Shown here: piece by piece, positions 9,001 to 56,712 of the stretch
Layout of the letters: every line of letters starts with the position of its first letter
Numbering within the stretch: position 1 is the first letter of the stretch
Origin: Microbotryum violaceum
Taxonomy: Eukaryota
NCBI GenBank assembly: GCA_001244265.2
Contig: CDLV01000005.1
Location: 2,046,001-2,110,000, forward strand
Direction: 5' to 3'
DNA: 64,000 nt
Made by a program: the position numbers and the translations under genes
The notes under the pieces: model-generated
What the model was told of the DNA's origin: nothing
Database searches by the model: none
Seen by the model: the letters and a program-made list of their open reading frames with translations, nothing else

Positions 9001-9266
9001 CGCGATCGATCGTCGATTGCGGCTTGGAGAACAGCCTCCGCAGCCGGGCTCATCCGCCTCGAGGCGCAAAGATGCAAATCCTTGGACCCAAGACGACCAA
9101 TCAGACGTCGACGCCAATCCATATAGTTGGCTGCCCGAAGAATTGGGACATGTAATCCACGTTCACTCGTTTCGGTAGAGTGTGTTTCGGTGTCCATTCC
9201 GATGTTGGTGGTGCGATGTGAATCGCTTTGCTGACCCGGGCCTCCTACGCTACCCGTTGGACTCAT
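6050..9266 (-). pseudogene. Copia 1 gag-pol from gag to RT N-terminus, frameshifted and broken at 6050
   Basis: [56 protein letters not shown]. Frameshifts near 6995 and 6290. The RT core with YVDD is absent. Confidence 0.93.
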
Positions 9267-12175: not shown

Positions 12176-15100
12176 TGTTAGAAGTGGGGTCTGAGAGCCT
12201 AACTCATTGCTATTAGTCTTGGCTAATACTTTATTCTGCGCGCGCGCGCCTATCTTTGTCTTTGCGTCTTTTTTTCCCTTCTGGTTTTCTTCTCCACGCT
12301 ATTCTCATCATCTCACTCGTGTATCTCGGAGCTGAGTCGTGGAGTACCTCTTAGTCCTTGTTGCAACAGGTTATGAGCTCAACGGGCGAATCCGACTTCC
12401 CCAACGGGTCGGGCAATCGCTTGTATCTCAAGGACACACAAGGGTACAAGAGCTGGTCACAACGTGCGTTTATCAATCTTCGAGCCGACAAAGTATGGGA
12501 TGTCGTCAATCAATCCATCGACTCCCTTGTCGCGGACTATCGGTCCACGCTCGTTATCGCACATGCAACTGCGTCCGTCGCGCCAGTTGAACCAGCCTCC
12601 TCCGGCTTTAGCGGGCTTGGGGGGGGGGGCTCTGGTTCTGCGCGCGCACTCGGACGCCTCGCTCAGGCTCACCAGCGTTCAAGTTGCGGACAAGGTCGCG
12701 GAATATCGCGAACGGGCCATCCGCCGCAACGATTTGGCATGCAAGTACATCGTCAATTCGATCTCTGAGGAACAGATGTCTCACTTGATTCATCTTACCT
12801 CGGCGTACGAGATGTGGGACACCCTCCGTGGTCTGCACTCTCACGGTCGCCCGAGTCGCACTATGGACCTCCTCAACACTCTAGCGCAACCTTACTCTGG
12901 GATATTCCTTTTAAGGAATTCGTCAACAAGGTCAAGATCGCCATGACCGATTTTCAGAACCTCGGAGCTCCGCTTCCGCATTGGCTGTTTGCAGGCATGC
13001 TCGTTCGGTCGCTCCCAGCCCAGTATGACTCGATCGTTGGGAACCTTGCCTCCGACATCGACATCCACATGGATTGGAACACGTTCTATCCGAAACTCCT
13101 GATGAACGTCGAAATGGCTGATTCCCGAAACAAACAAAAGGAATCGTTATCCGCTCGGATCGTTGACGATACTAGCCTCGTCGCCCGTATTTCCACCACG
13201 GCACAAAAGGACTACTCCAAGTCGTATTGTTCGCGCTGCAAAGCACTGGGACACGAGCGTGGTTGGCGTCTCTGTCCAAGCAGGAACAAGGATGCGAGCG
13301 CTCCCGCTTCCTCGGACTCAAATTCGAACGCAGCTGCCATTGGTGTAGATGAATCTGCATTGATGACCTACACTTTCCCCTATTCGCGAACGATGCCACG
13401 TTTTCCATGGATCATTGACTCGGGTGCTAAGGTCCATTGCGTTGGAGACAAGTCGGTCCTATCGGACGTTGTCTCTGAGCCTCTCAAAATTTCTGTCGCC
13501 GATCAATCTCAAATCGAATCTCCCGGTCATGGCTCAGTGACGTTTCTTACCTCATATGGCGCTCGTATCACCATTAAGAGGGTCTAATACATGCCCGGTG
13601 CTCAATGCGGTTTTATCTCCATTGACCGTCTGTTGGAATCGATGACGTACGCTGTTGGTCCCCAAAGCAATCTCATTTTCAGCATCCGCGGCAAGTCGAT
13701 TCTGCGCTCGCTTCCTGGTCGGGGGTTTGTCATGGATGCAGCTCCCGTTCAGCCTATCATGTCATCCTCACCGCCTTCAATGGTCGGAGCCAATTGTCTC
13801 ACTGGAACCTGTACGTTGATGGAAGCACATCGGAAGTTGGGCCATCAATCTCCTGCGACGATCGTTTTGGCCGACAAATCCGGGGCTATCACTGGCATCA
13901 CTCTGAAGGACGAAAAGGTTACTCCTTGCTTCTCGTGCATCCAGGCCAAGTCAAAGCGATCACCCTTCTCCAACAAGAGTACCGAAGCGCCTCATGCACT
14001 CTACTGCGTCTTCATCGATCTTGGGTTTGTCGAACATCCCAATCACCATGGCGATACTATCTATCTCGCTATCGTGGATCAGTATTCGACGGCTAAATGG
14101 ACGATCGTGCTAAAGGACAAGAGGGCTGAGACGATTATCGAAGCATGGTCGAAATTTCAAGCCGAGTCCGAGCGTCAAACGGGTCAGAAGTTCAAGAGGG
14201 TCAGATCGGACAATGGTCGTGAATTCGACAACTCATTGTTCCGGGCTCTTCTTGAAAAGCAGGGCATCATCGTGGAATTCACGGCCCCCTATACTCCGGA
14301 GCAAAATGGTCAAGTAGAGCGACTCAATGGATCTCTCATGGGTCTCGTTCGATCAATGCTCCTCGACTCCGGTCTTCCCATGCGATTCTGGTCAGATGCT
14401 CTGGCCGTCGCGACATTTGTTCTCAATCGTCGACCACATCCTCGTATTCAAGGAAAAACGGCAATCGAAGTTCTTCTCGGCAAGAAGCCTAGTCTTGCTC
14501 ATCTTCAGCCATTCGGATCTACGGCGTTTGTCCACGTTCCCAAGGAGCGTCGCTCCAAGCTTGCACCTCGCTCCATTCAGGGAGTTTTCATCGGGTACTC
14601 CGGTGAATACAACTACCGTGTCTGGGTCCAATCGTCGAAACAGGTCTACGTTTTGCGTCACGTCACATTCCTTGAGACTCCTTCCGTCGTCACTTCGTCT
14701 CAAGATCGTGCGGACGCTTCTGATCCCATTCATCATTCACAACCTCCTCATCCTCCTCATCCTCCGCCAGATGTGTTGCCGTCTACACCAACTTCACCTG
14801 TTGTGGATCCAACTTTGCCGGATCCACAGCCGCCTCGGGTGGTTCCAATTGGAGTTGGTCAACAGGGGGGTATCTTGCAGTCGTTTCTCAAGAACCACTC
14901 GACGGTGAGGCGGAAGTCGCTCTCGCTCCTCGTGAAGGTTACGCCATCGTTCGCACTGGTCCAAATCCTGGCCAATTCGAGAATGTTGATCCTTCCAACA
15001 TCCTTCCTGCTGGTTCTCGTCGTCGACCTCAACCTCCGGAAAATATACTTCCCATCAATTCGGCTATCATGGTCAATGTCTTGGATACTCCACCCATGTT

Positions 15101-16908
15101 CCACAACAAGCTTTCCTACGATGCCTACTGTGCTGCCGTGTTCGCCGAAGAAGACATCGAGATACCTAAGACATTCGAGGAAGCCATGAAGTCACCCTAT
15201 CGCAACCATTCGAGTGCGGCAAAGGCCTCAGAACTTCTACAATTTGATCATCATGGAGTCTTTCAGGAAGTCAAGTGGCACGAAGGAATTCAGGTACTCG
15301 GCACGATCTGGGTCTACAGTATCAAGTGCGATGCAAACGGCAAAATCATTCGTTTCAAAGCTCGTCTCGTTGCTCAAGGATTTGCTCAACGCCCAGGCAT
15401 CGACTACCATGACACCTACGCTCCTGTCGCTCGTTCTTCGACGATTTTGTTCTTGATTGCTCTGGCTGCTGCTCAGGGCCTGTATCTCGAACAGTTCGAT
15501 TTCGACTGCGCCTTTCTCAACGGCAAGATGACCGAGGATGTCTATGTTCGATACCCAAAAGGATGGAATCGTCCTCAATCCCCTGGCAAGTGCCTCAAGC
15601 TTGTGGGTTCCATGTATGGCACCAAACAGGCGCCCCGTGAATGGTATCGAGCCGTCAACGATCTCGTGGTGTCTCGAGGCTACATGAGGGCAACTGCCGA
15701 TGCTTGCCTCTACATCAAACATTCGGGCACTTCGTTTGCTATCATCACTCTCTATGTTGACGACGGTCTCATCGCGTCCAACAATCAGTCCTTCTTGGAC
15801 TCCGAGCTCGGATCGCTTCACAAGGCCTTCCAGCTCAAGCGTCTCGGACCCGTCTCCTACTTCCTGGGCTTCGAAATTCATCGCACCAAAGATTACATCC
15901 TCGTTCACCAAAGCAAGTATGTCCGCACTATGCTCGAGAAGTTCGATTTCGCTTCTCCATCCAAGCGCCGTGCAATCACGCCCATGGACGATCGCCCCTC
16001 GCTTCGAATCGATGCTACTCCGTTTGCCGATGTGTCATTGTACCAATCGGCTGTGGGTTCCCTGCAGTACGCGTCCACTCGTTGTCGACCCGATATCGCG
16101 ATTGCTGTTCGTGCCGTTGCTCAAAAGAACTCCTGTCCAACTGTCGACGATTGGGCTGCGGTCAAGTGTATATTTTGCTACCTCAACAGCACCATCGATT
16201 TGGGAATTCTTTATCGAAACAGTTCCACAACTCGATTGATGGTCTACTCCGATGCCTCGTTTGCGGATGACCCGGAACCTCGCAGATTGGTGGGAGCCTA
16301 TGCATCAATGCTCACTGGCGGCGTTATCTCCTGGCAGTCGAAGCAACAATCTATGATCGCTACATCCACTACCGAAGCCGAAATCCTCTCTGCATCCTCA
16401 GCCACTCGTGAAGCAATCTGGCTCCGTCGTTTGGCTGGTGATGTCGGCATTCCACAAGCACAGCCTACTATCATTCAAGAGGACAACGCCGCATGCATCC
16501 AGATCGCCAAGGATCCGGTCGATCACATGCGAACCAAGCACTTCAACATTGCTCATTTGTTCGTTCGAGAACGGGTTGCTTCTGGCGAGGTCGAACTTGA
16601 ATACTGCCCTACCCACGTCAATGCCGCGGATATTATGACGAAGCCTTTGGGATTTCAGCGCTTTGATCAACTTCGTGCGCTACTTGGAATAGTCTCGTTA
16701 GTCTCTTTGACCGGTGGAGTGTTAGAAGTGGGGTCTGAGAGCCTAACTCATTGCTATTAGTCTTGGTTAGTACTTTATTCTGCGCGCGCGCCTATCTTTG
16801 TCTTTGCGTCTTTTTTCCTTCTGGGTTCCTTCTCCACGCTATTCTCATCATCTCACTCGTGTATCTCGGAGCTGAGTAGTGGAGTACCTCTTAGTCCTTG
16901 TTGCAACA
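12176..16908 (+). mobile_element. Ty1/Copia LTR retrotransposon 2, full length but degenerate
   Basis: TG...CA LTRs at 12176-12368 and 16720-16908 with several differences, TSD GGACG (12171-12175 and 16909-16913), PBS GGTTATGAGC at 12369. Confidence 0.97.
12373..16760 (+). pseudogene. Copia 2 gag-pol with frameshifts and an in-frame TAA
   Basis: CSRCKALGH, WIIDSGA, HRKLGH, RSDNGREF, LYVDD, VYSDASFA, ADIMTKPL. Breaks near 12620, 12900, 13585 (TAA) and about 14870. Confidence 0.95.
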
Positions 16909-38798: not shown

Positions 38799-39923
38799 CG
38801 TGGGCGAGAAAACAGGTAGATACTACGTCCCGGATGGGGTTGGGGTTTGGTAAGAGTTCCTCTACTTCCGATGGTCCGTTCCAAGGATCTGGCCTGCTCT
38901 GTGTATATATAGGGCCGGGGCCTGCGCGGGAAAGAAGAAGCAAAGCTACAGTCACTAATGTCGTCGTCCCCGCCGACGAATCGTCTTTCGCCGTCCGAAT
39001 AATTAATCTTCGCAAGCGTCGTTCCAAACCATCTTCGTTCCCTTCGTCAGATCATCCCATTTACCACTCTTTACGTGCTACATCTACATCCCATTTGCCA
39101 CGCCCTACCTTCTACATCTACGTTCCGCCAGGAGTCAAGGAATAATTGGCGGGACTTCAGTGGACCCTCATTACCATTCTTCAGTGGTGTTTGACGACGA
39201 GCTCGGAACGAGAACGCGCCCTCATAGCCACCCTCCCCGCGGATACGAGTACCGTCTTGAGATGTGAGAGAAATCATAATTTGTATCCACTGACAGCACT
39301 GCTCGAACTCGGCCCAACTATTAGAGCGCGGGATTGCAAATCACTTGTCGCACTGCACCCGCACGGGGCCCCACCCCCACGCGCTTGCATAAATTGCACC
39401 TCAAGTTACCACACACCGAATCGGGTATCATCGCGGAAACCCGACGAATGAGTCTACACGCTCTCTTATATCCATCACACCGCCCTCACCCCCACCCAGC
39501 CCTAGGCTTGGTAACACACTGATCCCGGCCGGCGTTCCGACGGTTGTCTTGGCCGCAAGCTCGCCGATCGAGTTCGACCTCCCAACGACGAGCGTAAAAG
39601 ATGTGCTTACTGTTGAGAGGATTTGGATCTTCGGTCGCTGACAAATCCAAGGGAAGGATTTGGCCCACTTGATCGATTGAGCACTTGCGAGTCGAATCTC
39701 GCGAGCTGGGTCACTGCAGCGAAACTTCGGTTCGAAGTGGAGCCAGCTTCAAGTTCAAGCCTCAGGGACGAGAGGAAGCACTGCACGCGGCCTCATCGCA
39801 GGTGATCTCCTCCTCCGCGGGAGTGAACGTGACGACGCGTGGCTTTAATGTAGCTCCAACTCGCTCTGTCACCCCCTGTTGGGATCAACGATGATCCCGA
39901 AATGATCAACAAAAGAAGAAGAA

Positions 39924-39996
39924 CAGCTGGACCAGGAGTCGAACCTGGGTCGCTTCCTTTAATCGGAAAAGCTTTGACCAACTAAGCTATCCGGCC
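39924..39996 (-). ncRNA. tRNA-like gene or pseudogene with UUA in the anticodon position
   Basis: 73-nt cloverleaf: GGCCGGA/TCCAGCT, GCTT/AAGC, TTTCC-GATTAAA-GGAAG, CCAGG-TTCGACT-CCTGG. Intact A and B boxes and a downstream T-run. Non-canonical G32 and A33. Confidence 0.7.
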
Positions 39997-41086
39997 CCTA
40001 ATATCAGTGCAAGGTCTACTAACACCTTCAACACCCCCGACAGTGGGATCAGTGCTCGATATGGGGGTTCGCCACTGCGCCGCAAAAAGACGCGCACTGT
40101 AAGGCTGGGAGTCCAGAGGGTCTCGCCCAGCTGGTACGCTTGCACAAACTCTAACACTTCGTTTATGATCACTGGAGAGGATAGAAAGCAGAATGAAATC
40201 GAGCGGGTGCAGGTTCTTCAAGGTAAAATCTACTTTGGATCTGCGCTCGCCTGGGTCGTCAAGCAGGAGCGCCGCGCAGACATGGGTCACTACGAATTTC
40301 ATCACATCTTGAGCGGTCAGTTGGCCGCCCCTCGCTCTTGTCCGTAGTGCTCATCCGGCATTTCGTTCATTGTAGTCTTGAATCGCTTCTTCCTCTTCGC
40401 CACTCAATCACGTTGATCCCACAGCGTTTGCGCCGGACGGACTCCGACCTACGATTCCTGGATGCTCGACAACGACGCCGTCACCCGAGCATGAAGCGAG
40501 TGGTCGATTAAGCTGCTCGCTAGGCGTTGCCCTCCGCCACCCACCGCCATAATTTTACAACATCCAGCGTCAAAAACGACGCCGTCTGAGGAAGGGGACT
40601 TTGTTCGACCGCTTCCGCGACTTGAAGTGAGCAAGGCCGCGTTCAACACCAACAACGGCAATGGTGAGGAGCGAGACAGACTTTGATTATGGCCAAATGC
40701 CGAAACTAGGCACAAAACGACGCGCAATTTCGGGTGGAAACCTGCTTGACGCCCTCAAGCCAATGGCATTGGCAGTCATCATGGAAAGTGGGGCGGCAGT
40801 GGCGGAGGCCGCTCGATATGGCGACCGAAGGCTCCTGTTGAGCAGGGCTTCGCGTTGTCCGCACGTACTGAGTTTTCGTGCCACATCGGACACGGACTTT
40901 TCCCCATTTTTGCGTGCACGCTAAACCTCACGTTCTAGTGGTAGGGAAGAAGAAAGGATCTCGGGCACGAATTTACGGCTTTTTTTTGTAGAATCACCGT
41001 TTGTTTTTTTTGTAGAAAACGTTCATCATATTGCCCCCAGTTCCTGTTCCCCCTGTTTTGGCCTACGGAAAAACTAGATGGAAGAA

Positions 41087-42461
41087 TTTTTTTTGTTTTT
41101 TTTTGTAGAAAACGTTCATCATATTGCCCCCAGTTCCTGTTCCCCCTGTTTTGGCCTACGGAAAAACTAGATGGAAGACTACGATGATAACACAAATCGC
41201 CCGCAAAAGTGCGAGAAACGAGCCAAGTCCACCAATCCGAGATTCGGATTCAAATGCCCTAGCCAAGCGGTTGCTCCCCCCAGGAGACTAATGAGAGAGA
41301 GAAAGAGAGATGAAGAGAAAAAAAGAAAGAAAAGAAATGTACTAACGACAGAAGGCCCACCCCACAGCCACTTCCCACTCGGTCAAGACAAAGACAAGAG
41401 AGCGACTACGCAGCTACCCTGACCCGCGAAGTCCCAAGTCTATGCTCGGTCACAACAAGACGCGGTGGAGGCCCCTCAAAACCTCCCCCATCGGCAGTCC
41501 CTGGCCCCTCAAAGCCGACTTTCTGCCTGTGTCCGCTGATCCCTCCCTTGACTCAGAACCCCGAAGCCGAAGAGCGCGAGCCACACCGAGTCGACGCCAA
41601 ATCGCGAGATGGTCCATGATCCGCAACGGTGAACCTGTAACAAATGAAAGATGAAAGCGATCTATTTAGTGTACAGTAGGAGAAAATGATGTCACGAGAA
41701 TTTGGTGTGTGTGTGTGTGGTGGTGGTGGGGGAAAGTCGAACCCAGCCTCTACTGCCCTCTCCTCCCCCAAGCTCCTCCCGCCCTCAGCTTCAACCTCTC
41801 CTCCAAGATGATCCTCCTCCTCCCAACAACCTCCGTCCTCGTCCCCCACTTCTGCATCCCCACCTCCCGCTGCTGACCATCTCCAAGACCAGCCCGGTGA
41901 ATATTTCGATCGTCCTCCCCGCTCCTTCTTGATCGCACAGACTGGCCTTGAGCTTCGGAAGTCCGAACATGCGTTGAACAGCCGTGTAATGCGTGTTGTC
42001 GATCGTGTCGAGCCCCAGTGCGTCACAGAGCACGCTCCTTGCCGCGATCCAAACGTTCCCAGAGACAGCGCAGTCGAAGAAGTAGTGCTCCCGATCGTCC
42101 TTGGGCGCTCCACAGACGAGGCACGCGGGCGAGTCGTCGTGCTTTTGATGAAACTGCAGACTCCGAGTCGGGGTGAAGTTCCTGACGAGCTTGAACCACA
42201 CCTCGCGTTCCCTCGCCGTCAATGCCTTCGGTTGACCCCTTTCCAGAATCCCTTGAGATCGTCGGGCTGCAGCGAGTCCCTGAAACCGATCGTGTCGGTG
42301 AAGGCCTTTGCATTCAAGACTCGGCGGACGCGACGGATGGTGTATGGCCGATCCATGCTGAGCAAGTTGTATTGTGTTGATTGGTCTGGGAGAGCCGGTC
42401 TTGGAAGGCGCTGCGGCGGATCGATCGGATGGGGCAGGATCGACTCGAGCGGCGTGGTGGG
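41087..42461 (-). mobile_element. 5'-truncated LINE, family A (ORF2 C-terminus plus 3' UTR)
   Basis: AREREVWFKL, CLVC..DDREHYFFDC zinc-binding tail; 3' UTR closely matches the 44953 copy. Confidence 0.93.
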
Positions 42462-42798
42462 CCGCCCTTTTTTTTTTGTAGAAAACGTTCATCATATTGC
42501 CCCCAATTCATGTTCCCCCTATTTGGCCTACGGAAAAAACTAGATGGAAGACTACGATGATAACACCGCCCCCTTTTTTTTTTTTTGTAGAAACTGTTCA
42601 TCATATTGCCCCCAATTCATGTTCCCCCTATTTGGCCTACGGAAAAAACTAGATGGAAGTCGACGATGATAACACAAACCGCCCGCAAGATGCGAGAAAC
42701 GGGCCGGTGTCCACCAATCCGATACTTGGGATTCAAGTGCCCGATCCAAGCGGTTGCTCCCCCTCAGGAGACGAATGAGAGAGAGAAGATGAGAGAGA

Positions 42799-43716
42799 TT
42801 TTTTTTTTTTGACTGGGGCTCATAAATTGCAATCCTTCGGGTTGGCTGAGACCGCTACAAAAAGAGCTAAAGGAGGTTATAAAGCAACGACGGCAAGCAG
42901 TTGGGTGAAAGTCAAACCCCTGCGCGCAAAGAGCGCTGCGCAGATCAAAACCCGCCGAGCACCTAACGCGGACTCCAACGGGCGGTGAGTACTGCTGCCG
43001 CTTCACGTCCCAAGCGCGGGAGCGAAGATACTCGAAAACCAGGCAAGAGCGCCTAGAGAAAGAAGGGGGAGAGTATACGGAAAGTCACGACTGGGTTTAC
43101 GGAGAACCAGGAATACTAAGACAGAGAGGAGGGGAACACACCCGAGGGGCCAAGGTAGGGGTCGAAGCCGGAGGTAGAGGTCCCCAGGGATTAACAGGCC
43201 GCAGCCACCGTTTTTTTTTTTTTGACTGGGGCTCATAAATTGCAATCCTTCCACCGCTTTTTTTTTTTTTTGACTGGGGCTCATAAATTGCAATCCTTCG
43301 GGTTGGCTGGGACCGCTACAAAAAGAGCTAAAGGAGGTTATAAAGCAACGACAGCAAGCAGTTGGGTGAAAGTCAAACCCCTGCGCGCAAACAGCGCTGC
43401 GCAGATCAAAGCCCGCCGAGCACCTAACGCGGACTCCAACGGGCGGTGAGTACTGCTGCCGCTTCACGTCCCAAGCGCGGGAGCGAAGATACTCGAAAAC
43501 CAGGCAAGAGCGCCTAGAGAAAGAAGGGGGAGAGTATACGGAAAGTCACGACTGGGTTTACGGAGAACCAGGAATACTAAGACAGAGAGGAGGGGAACAC
43601 ACCCGAGGGGCCAAGGTAGGGGTCGAAGCCGGAGGTAGAGGTCCCCAGGGACTAACAGGCCGCAGCCACCGTTTTTTTTTTTGACTGGGGCTCATAAATT
43701 GCAATCCTTCCACCGC
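42799..43716 (-). repeat. Two tandem 459-bp units, each a longer plus a very short family B 3' end
   Basis: 42799-43257 and 43258-43716 share identical truncation points and near-identical sequence. Confidence 0.93.
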
Positions 43717-44947
43717 TTTTTTTTTTTTTTGACTGGGGCTCATAAATTGCAATCCTTCGGGTTGGCTGGGACCGCTACAAAAAGAGCTAAAGGAGGTTAT
43801 AAAGCAACGACGGCAAGCAGTTGGGTGAAAGTCAAACCCCTGCGCGCAAAGAGCGCTGCGCAGATCAAAACCCGCCGAGCACCTAACGCGGACTCCAACG
43901 GGCGGTGAGTACTGCTGCCGCTTCACGTCCCAAGCGCGGGAGCGAAGATACTCGAAAACCAGGCAAGAGCGCCTAGAGAAAGAAGGGGGAGAGTATACGG
44001 AAAGTCACGACTGGGTTTACGGAGAACCAGGAATACTAAGACAGAGAGGAGGGGAACACACCCGAGGGGCCAAGGTAGGGGGTCGAAGCCGGAGGTAGAG
44101 GTCCCCAGGGACTAACAGGCCGCAGCCAAGCCCCAGCTACTCGTCACCCCGACAGCGCCTGATGTCCTCCCTTGGCTGAATCTCGAGTGCTGGCTGTTGA
44201 GCCGTCGGGGCCGAGAGAAAAGCGATCCAGTACAACGAAACGAGCCTCGCCTTGACGCGAGGATATTGACCAGAAACGAGCGACCTTCCTTCCCGAGCCA
44301 TGCCGTAGATCTTGACCAACGCGAACGAACGAACCATTCAACGGAATCCAACACACGGCTTAGGAGTAAAAGGAGAAGTGGCTGAAGCGTAGTCAACAAC
44401 CGAGCAACAGGAACGAGAAGAGGAAGGGAAGGGAAAAAAGGGGGAAAGGAGAGGGAAAAACTTCACAAAGCCTCCAACGCAAAGACAATCGACCTGGCTT
44501 GCCGATCCATCCAAGAACAAAAAACCGCTACTGCGCAAAGTAGAGAGAGAGAGGGAGAGGTGCGCAGCCTTCCACTGCGCAACAAGTTCCAAGACAGTCA
44601 GCTTCTAAAAGAGGAGTCGACCTCCGAAAAAGAAGGGAGGAAAGGAGGGGAGGAAAATGGGAAGGAAGGACTTAACTCGGTCACCACACCTCCCAATCTC
44701 GAGCCCCAGGCACAAAATCCGCTCGAGAGAGAAAATCTCGCTCAAACGCTCTGAGTGCACTGGGGAGCGAGGGAGGGGCCCTGACCTTGTCCAGCTCGAA
44801 CCGCTGATGAACGCGCCAGCGGAGCAGGTGCAGCCGCTGGAAGCCGATCGCGCAAGCCAGCCGAACCCACATCCATTTCGAGGTCGTTCTCCCACGACCC
44901 CGCAAAAGGGGGAGCCCCATAGTCAGCTGCTCCGGAGTGAACCAACC
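43717..44947 (-). mobile_element. 5'-truncated LINE, family B (last about 88 aa of ORF2 plus about 950-nt 3' UTR)
   Basis: FTPEQLTMGLPLLRG..LHLLRW (44946-44681) parallels YTAVQRMFGLPKL..SGRW of family A. Poly(A) tail; flanked by CACCGC on both sides. Confidence 0.85.
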
Positions 44948-44952
44948 ACCGC

Positions 44953-47900
44953 TTTTTTTTTTTGTAGAAAACGTTCATCATATTGCCCCCAGTTCCTGTT
45001 CCCCCTGTTTTGGCCTACGGAAAAACTAGATGGAAGACTACGATGATAACACAAACCGCCCGCAAAAGTGCGAGAAACGAGCCAAGTCCACCAATCCGAG
45101 ATTCAGATTCAAATGCCCTAGCCAAGCGGTTGCTCCCCCCAGGAGACTAATGAGAGAGAGAAAGAGAGATGAAGAGAAAAGAGAAAGAGAGATGAAGAGA
45201 AAAAAAGAAAGAAAAGAAATGTACTAACGACAGAAGGCCCACCCCACAGCCACTTCCCACTCGGTCGAGACGAAGACAAGAGCACGACTGCGCAACCACC
45301 ACGACCCTCGACGCTCCAAGTCTCTGCTCAGTCACAACAAGACGCGGTGAAGGTCCCTCAAAACCTCCCCCATCGGCAGTCCCTGGCCCCTCAAAGCCGA
45401 CTTTCTGCCTGTGTCCGCTGATCCCTCCCTTGACTCAGAACCCCGAAGCCGAAGAGCGCGAGCCACACCGAGTCGACGCCAAATCGCGAGATGGTCCATG
45501 ATCCGCAACGGTGAACCTGTAACAAATGAAAGATGAAAGCGATCTATTTAGTGTACAGTAGGAGAAAATGATGTCACGAGAATTTGGTGTGTGTGTGTGG
45601 TGGTGGTGGGGGGAAAGTCGAACCCAGCCTCTACTGCCCTCTCCTCCCCCAAGCTCCTCCCGCCCTCAGCTTCAACCTCTCCTCCAAGATGATCCTCCTC
45701 CTCACAACACCCTCCATCTTCGTCCCCCACTTCTGCATCCCCCACCTCCCGCTGCTGATCATCTCCAAGACCAGCCCGGTGAATATTTCGATCGTCCTCC
45801 CCGCTCCTTCTTGATCGCGTAGACTGGCCTTGAGCTTCGGAAGTCCGAACATGCGTTGAACAGCCGTGTAATGCGTGTTGTCGATCGTGTCGAGCCCCAG
45901 TGCGTCGCAGAGCACGCTCCTTGCCGCGATCCAAACGTTCCCAGAGTCAACGCAGTCGAAAAAGTAGTGGTCGGTGTCGTCCACCGGCGCCTCGCAGACG
46001 AGGCACGCGGGAGAAGTGTCGTGATTCTGTTGGTGTTGCAGCTTGCGCGTCGGGGTGAAGCGGAGAATCAGCTTGAACCAAACTTCCCTCTCCCTCGCCG
46101 TCAGTGCCTTCGAGTTGACCGCCTTCCAAAAGCTCCTGAGGTCGTCCGGCTGCGGTGGTCCCTTGAGCCCGAGCGTGTTGGTAAAGGCCTTCGCGTTCAG
46201 GACCCGGCGGATGCGACGGATGGTGTACGGTCGAGCCATGTTCAGCAGCTTGTACTGGCTCGCCTGCTGTGGAAGCACCGGGTCCGGAAGGCGCTGCTCC
46301 ATTGCGAAGCGGGCCACGGGCTTGGGGAGAATCGCCTCGAGCGGTGCGCTGGTGCCGATCCGGGGAGGCACGTTGAGCCGTCCTGCCGCCACCGCCACCG
46401 CCAAGGGCGTGTTCTTGTGTCGATCGACAGTAAACCGGTACCAGGCCGCGATTGCCAGTCGCTGCGGGAGCCCGCGTCGATCGTACTCGCTGTTGTCGCC
46501 GAGCACATCCGCCGGCGGCGTCCAAAGGTGAAACCCTCCACCCGCATACAACTCGCGCCGGTAGAGATCCGCCACCTTCGGGTAGCCCTGGAGACGAAGG
46601 TAGTCAGGTATATGAACCGCGTCGATGGTCTGTCTCCCTCTGATGGGGGTGTGGAGGCTGCCGAGCAAGGTGGGAAGCGCGAGCAGGTTCGCGGTGGTCA
46701 AGGTCCTCGGGTTGACCTGCGCGTCTTGCTGTTTCGGAACCCCCAATGCTGCTCGCCATCGGGGATGGAGGTCGCTGGGGATGGGAGTGGATGGATGTGG
46801 CCAGAGATCGGTGGCCAGGTCGAGGTCGGACTGAGCTCGCTGGAGTGCCACGCGCGCAAGTCCTTGCCAGATCGCGCCCGAACCGCCGAGAAGAACGTCC
46901 CAGATCCGTGCCGCAACCGCGTCCACGACGTCCTGCATCCTGATCACCCCGAGTCCCCCTTGAGCTTGGCTGTGAACACGATATCTCTGCCGTAGCTGGT
47001 CCTGCCCTTGCCCCCACGGACGAAATCGACGAGCATGTCATCGAGCTTCTTGACGACTTCGGGCGGCGGGATGTCGGCTGCAAGGAAGTGCAGGATCTTG
47101 GGGATGGCGTACCGATTGACGTAAAAGGCACGGGTGTGGTGTGTGAGCCAGCGATGCTGAACCCCTTCCAGCGTCGCCTCGAGGCGTTCGATGAGATTCG
47201 CGTAGGCGAGTTCGGTGTCGCCGCTCGGGTCGAAGGGGAGGCCGATCCACTCGAGCGACTCGCCTGCGGCCTTGACGACGAGCGGGCGTTGGCCCGGGTC
47301 CCAGCGGTGTCCGATCGGTAGGACGACCGTCTTGTCCGTGTTGAGCCGGCCATTCGTTGCATGCCTCCAGTCGAGCGCCAGGTCATCGAGCAAGTTGAGT
47401 GACCCCAAGCCCGCGACGGCGACGACAACGTCATCGGCAAAAGCAAGCGATGTAATGGCGCGGCTCTGTGGGTACGGATGAAGTGCAGGTATGGAGAGAT
47501 TCAGCGCGATGTTTCGACGGTGTAGAGCATCCAGAAACGGCTGAAACACGATGTCCCAGACCGACGACGACGCCGGGTCCCCTTGGCCGAGCCCACACGT
47601 CAGTCGTACCGGCGCCGTCAAGAACCCATTGATGATGTAGCGGGCCGAGGTCGAGTCACCCGAGTAGAGCATCCTCAGCACGCGAAGAAAGGTGGCAGGA
47701 GCGCCCAGAGCGTCAAAGATGGCAAAGATCCAGTCATGCTCGACGAGGTCGTAGGCGGACGATTGGTCAAGAGATAAGAGTGCGGCCGCGGGGAACTCGG
47801 TCCTGCGCGCGCCAACTTCCTCGATCAGGAGACGAAGGTGTAGTGCAGCGTCAGCCGATCGGCGGTCCTTGACGAATCCGTGCTGCTGCGGCGGGAGGAG

Positions 47901-48569
47901 ATCGGGTAGAATCTGGTTCAACCGGGCGACATAGACCACGGTAAAGATCTTGTAATCGCACTCGCGCAGGGTGATCGGCCGGTACGACGAAAGTTCGGCG
48001 CGATCGGCGTTCTCCTTGTGTCGCTTGAAGATAAGGCGCACGAAACCTTGGCCCTGCTTGGGAGAGAGTGAACCGCGCTCAATCATCGCGTTGTAGGCCT
48101 TGGTCAGCACCTTGGCCCACGCCTTGGGTGCGGTCTGGTAGAGTTCGTAGGGCACGCCCGACGGTCCCGGCGATCGCCCCGGGTGCGTCGTCCCGATCGC
48201 GGCCACGACCTCGTCCTCGGTGATTGGTCGCTGGAGTAAGTCGTTCTGTGATTCCGAGAGTCGGCGCAGAAAGAGAGGATCCGAGCGCGGGTCGTCGCAA
48301 GTCCGCGCCGCCCTGATCGGCGCGAGGAAATCGTCCCGAAGTCGGTCGACGCGGTCCGGGTCACGAGGCTCGATGTGGTAGAGGCGCTGGAAATGCGCCT
48401 GCGTGTGGTCAAGAGCGACATCAATGTCATGCGTTAGCTCTCCGTTGCTCAAGCGCAGTGCTGTGATCTTGGAGTCCGAGTTCCGCGCCGCGAGCTTGGC
48501 GTGGACCGGCCGCGACAGTCGTTCCTCGGAGGCGATCTCGGGTACGTGGGCTCGGATCCGGAGTAGGCA
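44953..48569 (-). mobile_element. 5'-truncated LINE, family A, with complete RT domain
   Basis: [48 protein letters not shown]. Frameshift near 46955. Confidence 0.96.
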
Positions 48570-49958
48570 TTTTTTTTTTTTTGTATGAAACTCATCGCTA
48601 ATTTGCAAGACGAGAAACCCCCCTACGGAACTAAAGGAGATGCTACCCAGTATGCACGATGATGACCACAACCGCCGCTTGATGCGTTGTAACTAGCAGA
48701 ACAGACCAACCCGATACATCCGAGTTCAAGTCCCCCCACCCACGGTTGCTCCCTCCCAGAGACGAATGAAAGGAAGATTGAAGATAATACACGGGGAATC
48801 TGGAAACGATGGAAGAAATGTTGGTGGTGGTACATGTGTTGTACAGGTGAATCCGATCATAGTTGTACAGTTGAACCTTCTTCGATCTTTTGACTTCAGA
48901 CCCCCCTGAGACTGCCATACTCCTTGAAGCCCCTTAATTCTTTGAGACGCGTCGAACAAGGCCTCCGATGGCACAAACATCCCGCTCAATCCGAATGATT
49001 CACGTGGTCCAAAAGGGGGAATGTAACCCCCTGCGACCGCAGCAATCACATACCCCTTGTACCCGTCTGCGCTGGATCTCCACCGCGGAGTCCAACCCCC
49101 TTTTCGGTTACCAAAGTCTGCCCCCCCTCGCGACCGCACGACCCCAGATCACCCCCATTTCAATGACTGCAACTGCGAAACAGGCCTACTTCGCACAAAA
49201 ACACACAATCCAGAGATTTCCGGGGAAAGTCATGGAGCATGTGACAGTCCATTGGACACGCCTCGGTCTGCAGCGCGGGCGGGTGGCCGTCAACACCGGC
49301 GCGCAGCTGGAGACAAGAGGCGGGGTATACCTTCCGCAGGGGCCTCGCTTCCCTGCGGCGTACTCCCAATCTCGGAACGCACACTCGAGTCCCCTTGTAC
49401 GTGCAGGTGGTTCCCAATCACCGCAGATACTGGGGAAAGAAGGAGCATGAGGCCCACGACGGTGATGTCATTGGGTGGGACCTCGCTCGAGTGTGGATGT
49501 GTATGGCGGTTCGGTACCCGAGTCACCCGCCGCGCGGCCGCGACTCCGAGCGAGCAGCAAAGCAAGGAGAGGCGAGCCACGCAGGCAGTTTGTGCCGGCC
49601 TTGAACAGGAGATCACGGAGTCGCTCGACCGAAAGAGAAGACAGACCCGGCCCTTGAGAGGAGTGGAAAACTCACGGCATAGTCCAGGAGAGGGCCAAGG
49701 GGATCCGTTTTCGCTGTGTGTCATCGTGATGTGGCAGAAGCTCGAACCAAGGGCGACAATGCCCGCCGGCGCAAAGAACCCGAGGCTCCTGGGAGTACGG
49801 AAGCCTATGAGGAGGAATGGCAAAAAGAGCGAGAGAAAACAGGTTCAGTATTCTGGCGTGTTTGGGAGACATTTTGGAGATTGAGAAGGAGGGAAAAGGG
49901 ACTTGTGATTTTTTGGGGGTTTGGTTTTTGCTTGGATAGGGAGGGAGCGCCATCTACT

Positions 49959-52900
49959 TCATCGCGCCAATCTGAGCTTCAACCTCTCCTTCAGTCCCGC
50001 CATCTCCTTGTCCATGCTCGACATCGCTCTGGCGTGGCGATGGAGATCCCAGCGTCGGTTGCTGAGAGTGTCGAGCGCCAGCGCAATGAAGGCGCGGATT
50101 GGACGCTTTTTCGACGTCGGAAGGCGAGCGCGCAGTCGAGAGAGGCCGTGCTCGATCTGAAGTGCCGTGTAGTCGAGGTCGAGGATCGACACGACCCCCA
50201 GCGCGTCGCAGATAATGGACCTAGCTGCTTGCCAAAATTGAGAAGAGTCAGGGCAATCATGCCAAAAGTGAGTAAAGTCATCCTCCACCCCTGCCAGGCT
50301 GCATGCCTGCACAAGGCAGCAGGCCGAGTCGCCATGCCGCTGCACAAACTGGCGCTTCCGCGTTGGCGTGAAGTGGTACGCCAGCTTGAAGTGCACCTCG
50401 CGCTCGCGGGCCGTGGCGGGCCCGGTGTGGAACCACCCCAGAAGAGTCGCCTTTCTTTGGATGTGGCGAGTGATCCAGGGCGTTGTGTGTCGTCGAAACG
50501 TCGATGGTTGATGACGCGTCGAAGTCGCGCAATGGTGTAGGGTCTGTCCAAGCTCAACATTCTCCACTGATTAGCAAGCAAGGGGGCGGAGGGGAGGGGA
50601 AGTCTTTGATCAGGCATGCCGACCGGAGTCGCTCTGGGCAAGATGTGCTCGAGGGGACCGCCGGGCCGGGCTCCAGGTGCTCCAACGACACGAATGACGG
50701 GTGGTCGACGTGCGAGGACGGGAACAGGAGGCGGAAGCGGCGGGATGAAGCGATCGCCTGCGACCTGGATCCACGCCTGGACTTGATCGCGCTTCCATTG
50801 CCAAAGGTTGGACAGCTCCGAGCCGTCGCCTTGGGGATGCTTCTCAGGGGTCCAGGGCACCGTTGGAGCTGCGGGGTATTGAGCTCGAGCATAGATGTCA
50901 GCGATGGTGCGTTCGAAAATGAAATGCTTCGCCAAACGCTTATCCTGCTCCGAGAACGCCCGCGAGTCATGCAGACCCGGTTGGAGGGGGAAAGAGAAAG
51001 AAGATTGGAGACCGAAAGTTTGGCAGGATCGACGACGGCAGGGTAGCGTTCAGCGACCGAGAGCACCGCTCGCCAGCGGGGATGTAGCTCCCGGGGTGCG
51101 TCGGCGTTCCTCCACGTCCACAGATCCGCAGCAAAGTCAAAGGTCGGAAGCGCTCGCCGGATGGAACTCCGAGCCAGATCGCCCCAAATCGCAGTTGACC
51201 CGCCGGCCAGCACATCCCAGATCCGTACCGAGACTGAATCCACCACATCCTGGATGCTCACGACGCTGAGACCGCCTCGCGCCCGTGCCGTGAAGACGAC
51301 TGATTGCTTGTAGTCGCTGCGCCGCGGGCCTCCCTTCACAAAGTCAGCAAGCTTGCGCTCGATCGACTTGATCACGTCGGATGGCGGGATGTCGGCGGAG
51401 AGAGAGTGCAGCACCTTGGAGATGCCGTAGCGGTTAAGATAGAAAGCCCGGGTATGGTGCGTCATCCATCGGTCGCGCACCGATAGAATCACTCGATCAA
51501 CCCTTCGCTCAAGATCATGGAATTCCAGCCTGTTGTTGCCGTCAGGCGCAAACTGGAGACCGATCCAGGGAAGAGACTCGTCCGGTGCCACGAACGACAG
51601 TTTGGACAAGTCCGCGCGATCCCACAACGTCGCGCCCAATGGCATCACCACAGTTTTGTCGGTGTTTAGACGTCCGTTCGTCGCGAGTCGCCAATCCCGA
51701 GCTAACGCCTCGAGCGAAGCAATAGCTTCCGGCCCAGCAACAGCGACGACGGCGTCATCCGCGAACGCCAAATTGGTGATGCATCGAGTCTGCGGACGAT
51801 GAGCCAGCTCCGGAAGAGTGATAGTCAGCGCAATGTTGCGTCGACTGAGAGAATCAAGGAAGGGTTGGAATACCACATCCCAGACAGAAGAAGAGAGAGG
51901 ATCGCCCTGGCCAAGACCGCACAGGAGTCGCACCGTCTCGGTGAGGAAACCGTTGACAATGTACCGCGCTGTGGACGTCTCGCCGTTGTAGAGCATCCGC
52001 AAGACGCGCTGGAAAGGTTCCGGCGCGCCGAGAGCCTCAAACACCGCAAAGACCCAGTCGTGCTCGACCATGTCGTAAGCCGAGCTCTGATCCAGGGAGA
52101 GGAGCGCTGCTGTCGGGAACTCTGCCCCACGACCCCTAATCTCATCGATCAGGAGCCGCAGATGCAAAGCCGCGTCCGCTGGTCTTCGCCCCTTGACGAA
52201 CCCATGCTGTCCGGCCGGAAGAACATCGGGGAGGATCCGGTTCAGACGAGCCACGTAGACCTTGGTGAAGATCTTGTAGTCGCATTCCCGCAAGGTGATC
52301 GGACGATACGATTTGAGGTCGCACCGCGCTGCACCAGGTTTGTTGTGTTTGAACAAGAGGCGCACATTGGCCTGGCTCTGTTGTGGAGTAAGGGAGCCTC
52401 GAGTAATCAGCTCGTTGTAGGCTCGAGTCAAGAGAGGGGCCCAAAGCAGGGGGCAGGCTCGATACATCTCATAGGGGACCCCTGAAGGACCCGGAGATCG
52501 ACCTTCGTGCGTGGTTCGAATCGCTGCGAGCACCTCGGCCTCGCTGATGGGCTCGGCCAGAATGTCGACGTGCGAATTCGAGAACCGCCGAAGGAAGCGA
52601 GCGTCGGAAAGCGGGTCGTCACAAGGTCTTGCTGATCTGATGGGTCCCAAGAGCTCATCCCGCATCGTCACGACCTGTTCCGGATCCTTCGCTTCGACAA
52701 GGTAGTGCTGCTGGAAATGAGAATGGGTGTGCTCGAGCGTGCGCTCCATGTCAGTGGTGAGCTCGCCATCAGCGAGCCGGATACTCTGAAACTTCACATC
52801 GCGGGACCGAGCAGCCAGTTTGGCATGTACCGGACGACTGAGACGTTCCTCGGATGCAATCTCGGGCACGTGCGCCCTGATCCGGGACTGCCTTGCTCGC

Positions 52901-53997
52901 TCGTTCACAAGTTTGGTGAGAGCGTCGTGGGTGTTCGTCCAGTCGATAATATCGAAGGGGCTCAGCACCCGACGAGACTCAATGTCCTGCAGTCGAGATA
53001 CCAGCATCATTTCGAGGGCGTTGCGCTCCCGAAACAGACGCCGAGACAGCTCGAGAGCTTGGACCCGAGACTCCGAGAGTACGCGCTGAAGGTCCGCGAC
53101 CGGATCCCCAGACGGTGCCTGCTCAAGGAGACGAGTGACGAACTCCTTAAACTCGGCGTGTCTGAAGGTCGACGAGTTGATGCGGGTCAGAAAATGAGCC
53201 GCCTGGGGAAGGCAGAGCTCCTTTTCGACCTCGGCACCACTTGCGCGCAGCCTAAATGTGACCGTAACCGGTCGATGATCCGACATGGATCGAGAGATAT
53301 TGTACAGAGTAGAAGCAGAAACGACCCGTCGCTCGTGTCGCCGCTGCACCAGAACAAAGTCGATGCGCGCGCGCGAAATGAGCTGGCCGTCCTTGCTGAG
53401 ATGTGGGCGCGTGGTCGCCGGCGACAGTGGGTGCATGAGCCGAATGGCATCCGTGTACGCCCCGTCGAGCCGAGACATAAGCACAGGCCAGTGGTGGGTG
53501 TTCGGGCGGTCCACCTGTTGCGCTCGATCCACCGCGGGAATAGGGCAGTCGTTCAGATCGCCCGCGATGAACCGAATGTGAGAGGAGACGGTCGCCCGAA
53601 AGTGAAGGGAGGTGAAGAAGAGGAGGCGCTCGGCGGGTTGAACCGGAGCGTAGATATTGTTGAGTTCGACGACGTCCGTCGAACCCCGCACATCGAAGGT
53701 GGTCACGAGTAAGCGCCCGCCAAGAGACTGACGCGTGCGACGATGACCACCGAGAAGAGGAGAAGAGCTTGGAATCAAAGTGAGGCAGTGTTGAGAAAAG
53801 TAGGCCTCGCCCTGGTGGGACTGGGCCTACTCGTGGCGTATGTGAGATTGTCGTGCTTTAGGAACATTATGTTCCTGGAGAAGGATAGCAGAAGGGGGAG
53901 GTGTGAGCGAAGTGAGATACGAAAGAAGCAGACGACGTCGTTCAGGGGTATTGAAGCCCCTGTTGACGTTCCAGGTCATGATGATGAACTCAATCAT
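49959..53997 (-). pseudogene. LINE C ORF2: AP endonuclease, reverse transcriptase, C-terminal Cys/His domain
   Basis: MIEFIIMTWNVN, LLQEH, NIYAP, GDLND, RIDFVL, SDHRPV, GLGQGDPLS, FADD. In-frame TAG at 53829-53827 and frameshifts near 50950 and 50570. Confidence 0.95.
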
Positions 53998-55968
53998 TAC
54001 GATCGCGCCTTCGTTGCAGCAGCAGCTCCCTTGATGGACAACATAGGTCCGAATGTGGGTGACGGGAGAGGGTCCGCAGCAGTCGATTCGTTCCAGTCCG
54101 ATGTGCGCGCAACGCTGGTGAGACGCTGGATACGCTCGGACCGGCGAAGACCCTGGGAAGTTCCTTCTTCCACCTCCTGCTTGGGCTCGGGCTCGGGATC
54201 ACACACTGGACCTGGAGACGGCGAAGGCATCCAACCGGTCACAGACGGGGTGCGGTCCAACTCGGTGATCTCATCGTACAGACCGGCATCCTGTTTGCGC
54301 TCGCGATCCGACACACGATTCATCCAGTCGTCAGGAAGACCGTCCATATCAAGCTGATGGTGACTGGCCGATCGGAACCGCGTCAGCTCAGGGGTCGTCG
54401 AGACAACCTCAGGCATAGACCCCGTCTCGGCCGACTGCGATTCCCCTTCTTCCGCGTCACTCGTCTCCGTGTGTTCCTCCTGGTTCCCCTCCGCTCCGCG
54501 GTCCTGCAGATCCGACAGATCCGAAGGCTCCAACGGCGGCACCTCCTGCTGTGGTTCCAGCTGTGCCTCGACTACGCTCATCTCGTCCTCGAGAGCCTGA
54601 GCGGGCTCCCCCTGCGCCTCTTCGGCCACGTCGCCGGCCAGACTTGCGAATGGGTTTGCGGCGACGATGAAACCGCGAAGGGCGGATGCTGTGGGTGTAG
54701 AGCTTTGTGAACGAGCAGGGTAGACTCGTGGTGAGTTGTTAGTGGCCCTTGTGGGAAATGCGTTCTTCTTTGAACGCTTGGACGCGACAGGGGACATTGG
54801 GGAGAGGGAGAGGCTACATCACCTCTGCGTTGTTTTTGGGGGGTCGAGGTTTGCTCGATGCTGCTTTGGGGCTCGGCCTGGGGCCTTTGGTTGTTGTTAT
54901 TTTTCTGGGCGGCCTGCTGACGCTGGACCGGCTTTTGAACGCAGTTGTCGGAGTGGCCTACAAAACCGCATCGGCGGCAGGAGGCTTCGGCCTCGTAGTC
55001 GTGGCGAAGGGGCGTGAGAGTTGCGAGTCGTCCTCGAAGGTCGATCCTCGTCGGTAGAACCTGTCGAAGTTGAGCACCGTTGTTTTTGAACAGATCGTCG
55101 TCGTCGAACTGGACGATGGCCGCGTAGTTTCCTCGAGCAACGAGATACGAGCCTTGAACGACTGTTAGAGGCTGCTGGAGTTGGAGCAAGTCGCACTTGT
55201 GGCCGTCCCCGGTAAGCTTGGCGACGACGCCTTGCAGTTTGCTCCAGAGGTCGTCATTCGTGTATTCAGCCTCAGGACTGATGATGAAACGCAGTTCGAC
55301 GACGTTCTTGACGAACGCCAAGCGCTTGCGGACTTGGGCAAAGGAGCGTTTCCACTCGATCTTGGTCGCCGCGTCGTGGACTTGGTCGAGCGCCGCTGCG
55401 CTAGCGCAGCGCACCACGAACTTGAACCGGGTGTTGCCGTTTTGGATGATCGACTCCGGCGCGACTCCATGGATGACTGGAGCGTATTTCTGGAGCTCGG
55501 GGGGAGGACAACTCCTGCGGGCAGGTTAAAACACAACGACGTGTCGGGCGACAGGGTACGGAGCACCTTCGAGTACAACTCGGACTTCTCGCGTTCAGTG
55601 GCCACACCGGTGTGTTCGAACGTGACTTCAAGAACGGCACCAGACGTGTCGGCGATTGGTTTCGTTGCATTGAGTGCGCTAAAGCGCAGGGAGGTGGCCC
55701 GGTCCTTGCCGAAGCCGAGTGCTTCTTTGAGCACAAGGATGCGGGTGCCCTGGCGTGTGCCATCTTCGACACTGATCATCTTCAGGATCCTCGCGACATC
55801 CTCCTTCCTCTTCTTCTCTTCATCACGCTTTTCCTGGTACAGCGCTAGGCCGGGGTTCCCTGGTCCCTCGGCGGCATCGGCCTCCGCCCCCGCGTCACCA
55901 CGTGGTTGCCCCGTCGCTGCCGGCTCCGGAGGGCCGCGGCCCGGATCAGGCGGTGCCTGGTCGGACAT
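53997..55968 (-). pseudogene. LINE C ORF1 (Gag-like, one zinc knuckle)
   Basis: [10 protein letters not shown] start, CRRCGFVGHSDNC knuckle, acidic tail. Frameshifts near 55500 and 54800. Stop overlaps the ORF2 start (TAATG). Confidence 0.85.
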
Positions 55969-56040
55969 TGGGTCGATAGCTGATGTAGCGGTTGATGTAT
56001 TCGATGTATTGACGTTTGCCGAGGTAGGGTAGTGCGATTG

Positions 56041-56289
56041 AGATGAAAGATGAAAGATGAAAGATGAAAGATGAAAGATGAAAGATGAAAGATGAAAGAT
56101 GAAAGATGAAAGATGAAAGATGAAAGATGAAAGATGAAAGATGAAAGATGAAAGATGAAAGATGAAAGATGAAAGATGAAAGATGAAAGATGAAAGATGA
56201 AAGATGAAAGATGAAAGATGAAAGATGAAAGATGAAAGATGAAAGATGAAAGATGAAAGATGAAAGATGAAAGATGAAAGATGAAAGAT
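56041..56289. repeat. Perfect heptamer array (AGATGAA) x about 35.5 in the LINE C 5' UTR
   Basis: 249 bp of uninterrupted 7-nt period; element sense TTCATCT. Confidence 0.99.
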
Positions 56290-56353
56290 ACACCTTGCAC
56301 AATTTTTGGGTACCTTAGTAATAGACAAACTACCGCGTCTATCATAACATCTT

Positions 56354-56459
56354 CTCTCGATAGCTCAGTTGGTAGCAGCGCGGGACTGTAATAGGTTCAA
56401 GCAAGCTTGCCTTGCCCATTGTCATCCCGAGGTCACCGGTTCGACCCCGGTTCGGGAGA
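56354..56459 (+). tRNA. tRNA-Tyr(GTA) with a 32-nt intron (56392-56423)
   Basis: CTCTCGA/TCGGGAG acceptor (C1-G72, A73), CGGGA-CTGTAA[intron]A-TCCCG, ACCGG-TTCGACC-CCGGT, followed by a T8 terminator. One extra base in the D arm. Confidence 0.93.
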
Positions 56460-56712
56460 TTTTTTTCGTCTTTTTGCGTGGACTGGCGAGCATCCGCACG
56501 GCGGTGATCTTCGTTGAACCAAAATGGCCCAGTACATGCTCTTAGCGGTGGGCTGCATTGCTGGTGATCGTACATCAAAATTTCACTTTTGCAAGTGCGT
56601 GGATACCATGATATGCTCGGATCTCGGGACTATTGTAACTTAGACTGTTACTCCGAGTCGGGCTTGACCGAGTACTCTCGGGTTCGCCGCGGCCGGCGGG
56701 TTGACGATTAAA

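Follow-up and report, generated by a model that had tools for sequence, protein, structure and literature searches.

This study focused on a stack of long interspersed nuclear elements (LINEs) that ends beside a tRNA-Tyr gene in the basidiomycete fungus Microbotryum violaceum. The stack lies in a window of 64,000 nucleotides (assembly GCA_001244265.2, contig CDLV01000005.1, positions 2,046,001 to 2,110,000 of the forward strand), and all coordinates given here are those of this window. From 40980 to 56331 it runs head to tail without a break and is made up of 12 LINE pieces. Each of these lies on the minus strand, its poly(A) end facing away from the tRNA-Tyr gene and its 5' end turned toward it. 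On the tRNA side it ends in ACCGC, 17 nt from the mature tRNA. As read from the junctions, one nucleotide beside the gene has been reused by two or three LINE families, and a landing site that lies repeatedly 17 bases upstream of tRNA-Tyr suggests that these elements home on tRNA genes. We place the probability that the stack is a product of tRNA-gene targeting via the RNA polymerase III (Pol III) complex at about 60%, a reading that rests on this one locus and on one hint from another. A more specific version, in which at least two related autonomous LINE families and an abundant partner are guided by Pol III to a fixed point ~17 nt upstream of tRNA genes and stack there by regenerating their target, is in our view slightly better than an even bet.

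On the plus strand, each piece opens with a poly-T of 8–14 nt and continues as LINE sequence toward the tRNA until its own internal stop. The pieces were named, in order, A1, A2, A3, A4, A5, B1, B2, B3, B4, B5, A6 and C, giving six members of family A, five of family B (42799–44952) and one of family C, with seven different truncation points among them. The original prediction had described 12 minus-strand segments with their 5' ends toward the tRNA, and this anatomy was verified. For comparison, short reads were assembled over 39500–56040 from four runs (X1, X7, X10 and X14) representing three organisms, coded A, B and C. The distal edge of the stack is marked by ACGGC (40975–40979, plus strand), which has one mismatch to ACCGC, immediately precedes the first poly-T and is crossed by contigs of X1 and X10. 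It is followed by five 5'-truncated 3' pieces of family A: A1 (40980–40999), A2 (41000–41086), A3 (41087–42467), A4 (42468–42573) and A5 (42574–42798). The head of A3, T8-G-T9, reappears elsewhere as T7-G-T8 (at a joint of 46141 to 41000), which marks it as the tail of a subfamily and not as a tiny insertion in its own right. Extra C runs (CC, CCCC) separate the target motif from the poly-T of A4 (42468) and A5 (42574), and are possibly untemplated additions made in reverse transcription.

The next four pieces, B1–B4 (42799–43716), form two 461-bp units, each composed of a 397-nt and a 29-nt 3' fragment of family B, and the fragments terminate in ACCG and CACCGC. Tandem Repeats Finder reported 42799–44128 as a tandem repeat with a period of 461 bp (2.9 copies, 98%), and self-BLAST gave identities of 98.7–99.3%. 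Because the truncation points of B3/B4 are identical to those of B1/B2, the simplest view is that B3/B4 are probably a later tandem duplication of B1/B2 and not fresh insertions. B5 (43717–44952), a family B piece of 1.2 kb, is homologous to other B copies until 44942, and the remaining CAACCACCGC (44943–44952) is either filler or a target copy; longer B copies extend beyond 44942 in X10 and X14. A6 (44953–48569) is a family A piece truncated at its 5' end within open reading frame 2 (ORF2), which in this piece specifies reverse transcriptase (RT) and a zf-RVT zinc finger. It stops at 48568/48569, a point beyond which longer A copies continue in X7, X10 and X14, and it meets the poly-T of C with 0–1 nt of filler and no motif. 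Last, and closest to the tRNA, is C (48570–56331), a family C LINE of 7.76 kb and near full length. The repeated insertion that had been proposed probably does not extend to B3/B4, and the number of independent events is better put at six or seven than at twelve.

The junctions between the pieces share a short motif. At 8 of the 12 junctions, ACCG or CCGC stands no more than 9 nt ahead of the poly-T, whereas random positions have it at a frequency of 0.052 for the whole window and 0.064 for the array (binomial P 1e-7), and when the two duplicated junctions are subtracted it is still found at 6 of 10 (P 1e-5). The motif positions are 40996 (ACCG), 42462 (CCGC), 42565, 43207, 43253, 43668, 43712 and 44948, with ACGGC at 40975. 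All of these had been listed in the original prediction and every one is present, but that at 42462 is partly element sequence, since its CCG is common to family A itself (A6, 46354–46357), and is followed by a CCC filler. The tRNA-proximal copy of the motif, ACCGC at 56332–56336 on the plus strand, was confirmed at −22 to −18 of the mature tRNA. Between it and the 5' end of the mature tRNA, the sequence reads GTCTATCATAACATCTT, a 17-nt spacer (56337–56353, plus strand) of which there are no duplicates anywhere in the stack.

Other genomic copies of the same families have different letters ahead of their poly-T, namely ...GGGGAGCTG in C copies of X7 (before 48574) and ...CATCGGCT in B copies of X10 (before 43717), while the fillers at joints of other loci are CGTAA and CAATTTTTA. 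A check of other copies for an ACCG(C) flank had been set beforehand, and those of B and C carry unrelated letters at this place. As (A)CCG(C) is absent from the 3' flanks of these copies, it was derived from a local target duplication; the idea that the motif belongs to the 3' end of the element, for instance as a product of read-through, was considered and rejected on the same evidence. The motif also carries a trace of its neighbours. The CCA with which B1 ends, joined to CCG, reappears as CCACCGC at three junctions to the right (43258, 43717 and 44953), as is expected of a copy made by a staggered cut if every event cut at the same place, and CAACCACCGC after B5 resembles the native CAAACTACCGC at 56326–56336. 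Repeated insertion at one nucleotide, with duplication of the local target, is therefore well supported by the junction sequences, and the earlier claim that every insertion re-duplicates its target agrees with the enrichment of the motif at junctions, its absence from other B and C 3' flanks and the rightward carriage of CCA. From the poly-T junctions, the first-strand nick would lie between 56336 and 56337 on the plus strand. In the simplest reading, the plus strand is nicked behind ACCG or ACCGC, poly(A) serves for priming and 4–11 nt are duplicated.

The tRNA gene need not be part of such a history. A founder LINE could have landed beside it by chance, with later copies going into or onto the poly(A) tails of those already resident and a staggered cut copying ACCGC each time. 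We consider this account unlikely, but it has the most in its favour among the alternatives. LINE tails make up 12 of the 18 T runs of at least 7 nt in the window, and hardly any other long A/T tracts exist in this GC-rich genome. Integration at poly(A) tracts has a fungal precedent in Zorro3, an L1-like element of Candida. A truncated 5' end sits directly on a poly-T, with no filler, at three junctions here and in at least three joints at other loci. Head-to-tail joints, in which a truncated LINE is set onto a second LINE's poly-T, occur commonly in these genomes, with no filler in some and locus-specific fillers in others. Their presence at several loci means that stacking is a general habit of these families, which we count in favour of tRNA-gene targeting. 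The junction motifs alone fit both histories and cannot separate nesting in tails from growth at the tRNA side, because both copy the flank. The sole point at which the two differ is that pure tail nesting requires the rightmost element, C (or A6 and C together), to be the founder and the oldest.

The data favour the opposite order, with old pieces distal and young ones near tRNA-Tyr. C and A6 are closest to the multi-copy consensus, almost matching the multi-copy contigs (9 differences in 2284 nt for X1 records 4–8, and 3 in 1124 nt for X10 records 10–11), whereas A3 and A5 are the most diverged, with identities to A6 of 89.5% and 87.6%. The read-based differences considered were the best-supported 40 of 453 and the contig pieces 32 of 4611; among those 40, 21 fall within the 4 kb of A1–B5 and 16 within the 11 kb of A6–C. 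The distal edge of the stack is common to organisms A, B and C. As the youngest-looking pieces stand beside the tRNA, a site that is not a tail appears to have been reused at separate times, and the original prediction that older copies were displaced from the tRNA draws some slight support from the near-consensus state of C and A6 and the divergence of A3 and A5. Two further points speak against a founder placed by chance. The founding site is without an A/T tract, and only ~0.04 stack ends would be expected by chance within 20 nt upstream of a tRNA genome-wide, by our own calculation from 392 LINE copies, 134 tRNAs (PMC4469406) and an assumed assembly of ~26 Mb.

A second candidate insertion, also not within a tail, was found upstream of the tRNA-like gene at 39924–39996. 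In X1, a contig joins 40041 to position 48840 of C, on opposite strands, with a depth of 246 that is single-copy when compared with flanks of 218–231. The X1 flank contig begins at 40051, while contigs of X7 and X10 begin at 40005/40006 and are continuous through the site; the C fragment near 40041 is absent from these two runs and from the window. Since unitigs cannot overlap by more than k−1 letters, the only consistent reading is that X1 carries a 271-nt, 5'-truncated fragment of C between 40041 and ~40051. The insertion is polymorphic and lies 45 nt upstream of the tRNA-like gene. The sense strand of the fragment would be the plus strand, with its 5' end facing the tRNA-like gene and the two transcribed divergently, which is the same geometry as at tRNA-Tyr, where all 12 of 12 pieces have the opposite orientation to the gene and their 5' ends toward it. 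The event was accompanied by an apparent loss of ~9 nt of target.

It could also be proposed that the locus is a hotspot unrelated to Pol III, either because the endonuclease prefers the surroundings of ACCGC^GTCTATC or because the chromatin there is open or fragile, leaving the tRNA a bystander. Reuse of the same nucleotide would also be expected of a sequence-specific endonuclease, and growth on the tRNA side would be explained, because the full recognition site is kept only beside GTCTATC. However, the unrelated letters before the poly-T of other copies mean that loci differ in the left half of the site, and the X1 insertion site (40041–40051) has no obvious sequence in common with that at tRNA-Tyr. 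A rare, long target is also at odds with abundant families, as suggested by a high word depth, although depth is not equal to copy number: it is far above that of the flanks in the LINE parts, and declines toward the 5' end of C. We find a local hotspot doubtful, and less probable than nesting in tails. That the array arose mainly by segmental duplication, recombination or misassembly of repeats is very improbable, for although the B1–B4 block is a 461-bp tandem duplication and the single-base indels of the window against contigs (49790 and 50985, and 46954 in three of four runs) resemble long-read consensus error, duplication cannot produce seven truncation points and three families, and short-read contigs of single-copy depth bridge both the left edge (X1, 40051–41033 with 0 differences; X10, 40005–41026) and the 41086/41096 junction (an X1 joint, depth 212), the latter being the only internal junction bridged among the joints listed. 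An X7 contig extends to 40986, X14 has no cover of 40052–40603 and is uninformative either way, and the right flank of the locus is present in twenty public runs.

Several observations weigh against tRNA-gene targeting and must be set beside the evidence for it. Three of the 12 junctions (41087, 42799 and 48570) are free of the motif. Filler-free joints elsewhere (46141 to 41000, 53539 to 43717 and 50064 to 42574) mean that tail insertion or template jumping does occur, and could build stacks without a tRNA. The window itself is without a LINE at the tRNA-like gene (39996), and the orientation of the X1 joint was deduced from contig boundaries, not read directly. The elements stand at −17/−18 from tRNA-Tyr but at some −45 to −55 from the tRNA-like gene, whereas a single spacing would be expected of a strict tether. 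Subfamily structure confounds the argument from age, since A3 has protein matches of its own at 95–97% in other species, and that argument was drawn from the differences and contig pieces specified above (40 of 453 and 32 of 4611). Finally, one locus is fully resolved, and four scans of other collections gave no related locus: in metagenome contigs and prokaryote genome contigs, searched with ORF2 alone and with a 10-protein alignment, the patterns found matches in all four scans, but none at a locus encoding a relative.

If tRNA-gene targeting is nonetheless correct, the stack would have been built by at least six or seven separate events of target-primed reverse transcription by Microbotryum LINEs. 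Families A and C would supply the AP-endonuclease (APE), reverse transcriptase and zinc finger, with B an abundant and possibly non-autonomous partner. Each event would nick the tRNA-sense strand at ACCG(C)^GTCTATC, 17–18 nt upstream of mature tRNA-Tyr, and cDNA synthesis primed at this nick from the poly(A) tail would leave the element antisense to the tRNA with its 5' end adjoining it. A staggered second nick would then duplicate 4–11 nt to the left of the first, rebuilding the target beside the tRNA and leaving a copy behind each older element, so that newer elements come to lie nearest the gene. By analogy with TRE5 of Dictyostelium, we infer that the site is chosen by its position relative to the Pol III complex (TFIIIB/TFIIIC) and not by sequence. 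The three motif-free junctions are best explained by the reverse transcriptase jumping to another poly(A) template within one event, or by insertion into an existing tail, and one B–B unit would have been added later by unequal recombination. Of this account, the sequence itself shows how the stack is built and oriented, that one nick site was reused and that the motif is of local origin, while the sequence of events, template jumping and the part played by Pol III factors are inferred. The predicted empty site has 40979 joined to 56337, that is, a left flank of ...TTTACCGC followed by GTCTATCATAAC-tRNA.

The layout of C, with an ORF1-like region, ORF2, 3' untranslated region (UTR) and tail, is the reason for regarding it as close to full length. 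On the minus strand, tblastn of Microbotryum gene models placed the ORF1-like region at ~55968–54003 and ORF2 (APE-RT) at ~53997–49962 (models P0002, P0003 and P0039); a 3' UTR of 1.4 kb starts at ~49962 and a poly(A) tail lies at 48570–48582. The 5' UTR contains a perfect (ATCTTTC)x35.6 microsatellite of 249 nt (56041–56289; Tandem Repeats Finder, 100% matches), which is (GAAAGAT)x35.6 on the other strand, and A3 contains two further GAAAGAT units near 41645. A multi-copy contig of X10 extends 658 nt past 56040, and the 5' region of the family may differ from that of C in the window. One open frame of C (50554–53826, P0001) contains RVT_1, the Pfam E-value being 5e-21 for C and 1.8e-20 for A6. 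The nearest proteins to P0001 are Microbotryum gene models (88–89% identity), and its best relatives of solved structure are human L1 ORF2p (E ~2e-23), with whose endonuclease-RT region it aligns from residue 47. Exo_endo_phos is present in the close homologues P0009, P0010 and P0031, and is below the Pfam threshold in C's own open frame; zf-RVT is found in A6 and A3 and in the homologues P0007, P0009, P0010 and P0031, so that intact homologues carry Exo_endo_phos, RVT_1 and zf-RVT. No RNase H match was obtained for A6, A3, P0007, P0009, P0010 or P0031, and the ORF1-like proteins P0039 and P0023 belong to no Pfam family even at an E-value of 1.

The poly(A) 3' ends, varied 5' truncation and short target copies of 4–11 nt are those of LINEs, and features of long terminal repeat (LTR) elements are lacking: the pieces are not bordered by terminal direct repeats, and none of the array's ORFs has an integrase domain. 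From their domains and ends, A and C would be classed as APE-type non-LTR retrotransposons like those of the L1/Tx1 group. The two families are ~65% identical across the RT and resemble each other at their 3' ends, and the C-terminal part of ORF2 in A3 matches Microbotryum proteins at up to 95–97%. Of the three LINE families originally proposed, A and C can thus be described as related autonomous LINEs, but B matched none of the 41 LINE proteins to which it was compared, and could represent either a non-autonomous element or an extended 3' UTR. Neighbours in the protein atlas are generic APE-RT-zf-RVT clusters and are uninformative on targeting. Single-base indels set the window apart from the short-read contigs: at 49790 and 50985 it differs from all contigs of all four runs, at 46954 from all contigs of three of the four runs, and at 48731 and 49011 from some contigs only. 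It is to these indels that A6 and C owe their frameshifts. The indels may reflect a faulty assembly consensus as opposed to genuine decay, and C could then be intact.

The window consists of fungal DNA with ~55% G+C, and across its 64 kb Rfam gave two tRNA matches only. The first is the tRNA-Tyr(GTA) gene (56354–56459, plus strand; RF00005, 46.3 bits), which ARAGORN also reports as tRNA-Tyr(gta) when introns are allowed, with an intron of 32–33 nt; it is directly followed on its 3' side by a T7 run (56460–56466), a Pol III terminator. The second is the tRNA-like gene (39924–39996, minus strand; Rfam 48 bits, also found by ARAGORN). Its anticodon loop, GAUUAAA, has A in place of the expected U33 and a 'tta' anticodon, and its acceptor stem has one C-A mismatch. 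It belongs to a multi-copy family, as judged by word depth and by 10–23 contigs per run, other members of which deviate at 39925, 39958 and 40000, and it may be a decayed copy of a genuine tRNA gene. Outside the array, no LINE copies were detected in the window, where tblastx gave short linked fragments and tblastn gave copia-like matches only. Remnants of copia-type LTR retrotransposons lie at 4200–9600 and 12700–16900, with near-identical inverted repeats (4456–5163 and 5347–6053) and direct repeats (4207–4542 and 9265–9600). P0028, a Microbotryum protein that has both integrase and RT domains, is matched at 7002–8384 and 13285–14679 and in flanking pieces.

The targeting of tRNA genes is a textbook route by which mobile DNA survives in compact genomes, and the LINE content of Microbotryum has been much studied for the build-up of repeats on the mating-type chromosomes. 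If the more specific version given at the outset is true, fungi would gain their first non-LTR retrotransposon system directed to tRNA genes, and the safe-haven strategy would have arisen independently for a third time, after yeast Ty and the dictyostelid TRE/NLTR elements, with an unrelated LINE lineage arriving at the same solution. Such a case would also allow the tethering of the endonuclease/reverse transcriptase to TFIIIB to be studied in a genetically tractable fungus. The LINEs of Microbotryum, which account for only 0.93% of the M. lychnidis-dioicae assembly (PMC4469406), would in that event be better viewed as stacks beside ~130 Pol III genes than as insertions scattered through the genome. 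The self-regenerating target, for its part, preserves the order of insertion in plain sequence. No discussion of such behaviour was found in the Microbotryum genome paper (PMC4469406), whose supplementary repeat tables may hold LINE positions relevant to the claim. Searches of the full-text literature found no tRNA-directed LINE in fungi. The earlier statement that no basidiomycete LINE of this behaviour had been described is in line with these searches and with the table of a 2018 review, in which tRNA-directed non-LTR elements are listed in dictyostelids only (PMC5911963); in a comparative study, TRE-like elements were not found in other amoebozoans (PMC5006619).

Among known systems, the likeness is greatest to TRE5 (A/B/C) of Dictyostelium. 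These are also non-LTR elements with an ORF2 for APE, RT and a zinc finger, an ORF1 of unknown fold and an oligo(A) tail, and they too lie upstream of a tRNA gene, are transcribed in the opposite direction and have the 5' end toward the gene (PMC5911963). They differ in their distance, which is 40–54 bp for TRE5 (TRE3 inserting downstream; PMC5911963) and 17–18 nt in Microbotryum, and in their host, an amoebozoan and not a basidiomycete; the likeness is one of features, seen at one locus. No account of TRE elements stacked at single tRNA genes was found in PMC5633606, and a parallel in stacking is therefore not drawn. NLTR-A and NLTR-B represent L1-type elements that likewise insert close upstream of tRNA genes, at 2–6 bp and 39–64 bp respectively (PMC5911963), but in these RNase H replaces the zinc finger, whereas the Microbotryum homologues carry zf-RVT and no RNase H. 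Ty3, at the Pol III start site, and DGLT-A, 13–33 bp upstream of the mature tRNA, resemble the present elements in their placement near the Pol III start region (PMC5911963), yet both are LTR elements that use an integrase, in contrast to the poly(A) junctions seen here, which point to target-primed reverse transcription without LTRs or integrase. More distant examples are NeSL-1_TV (tRNA-Pro) and LIN15_SM/LIN25_SM (tRNA-Arg/Glu), non-LTR elements that are also tied to tRNA genes (PMC4640811). These have a restriction-like endonuclease and insert inside the gene, whereas the Microbotryum elements are of the APE type and lie outside the tRNA gene, leaving it intact.

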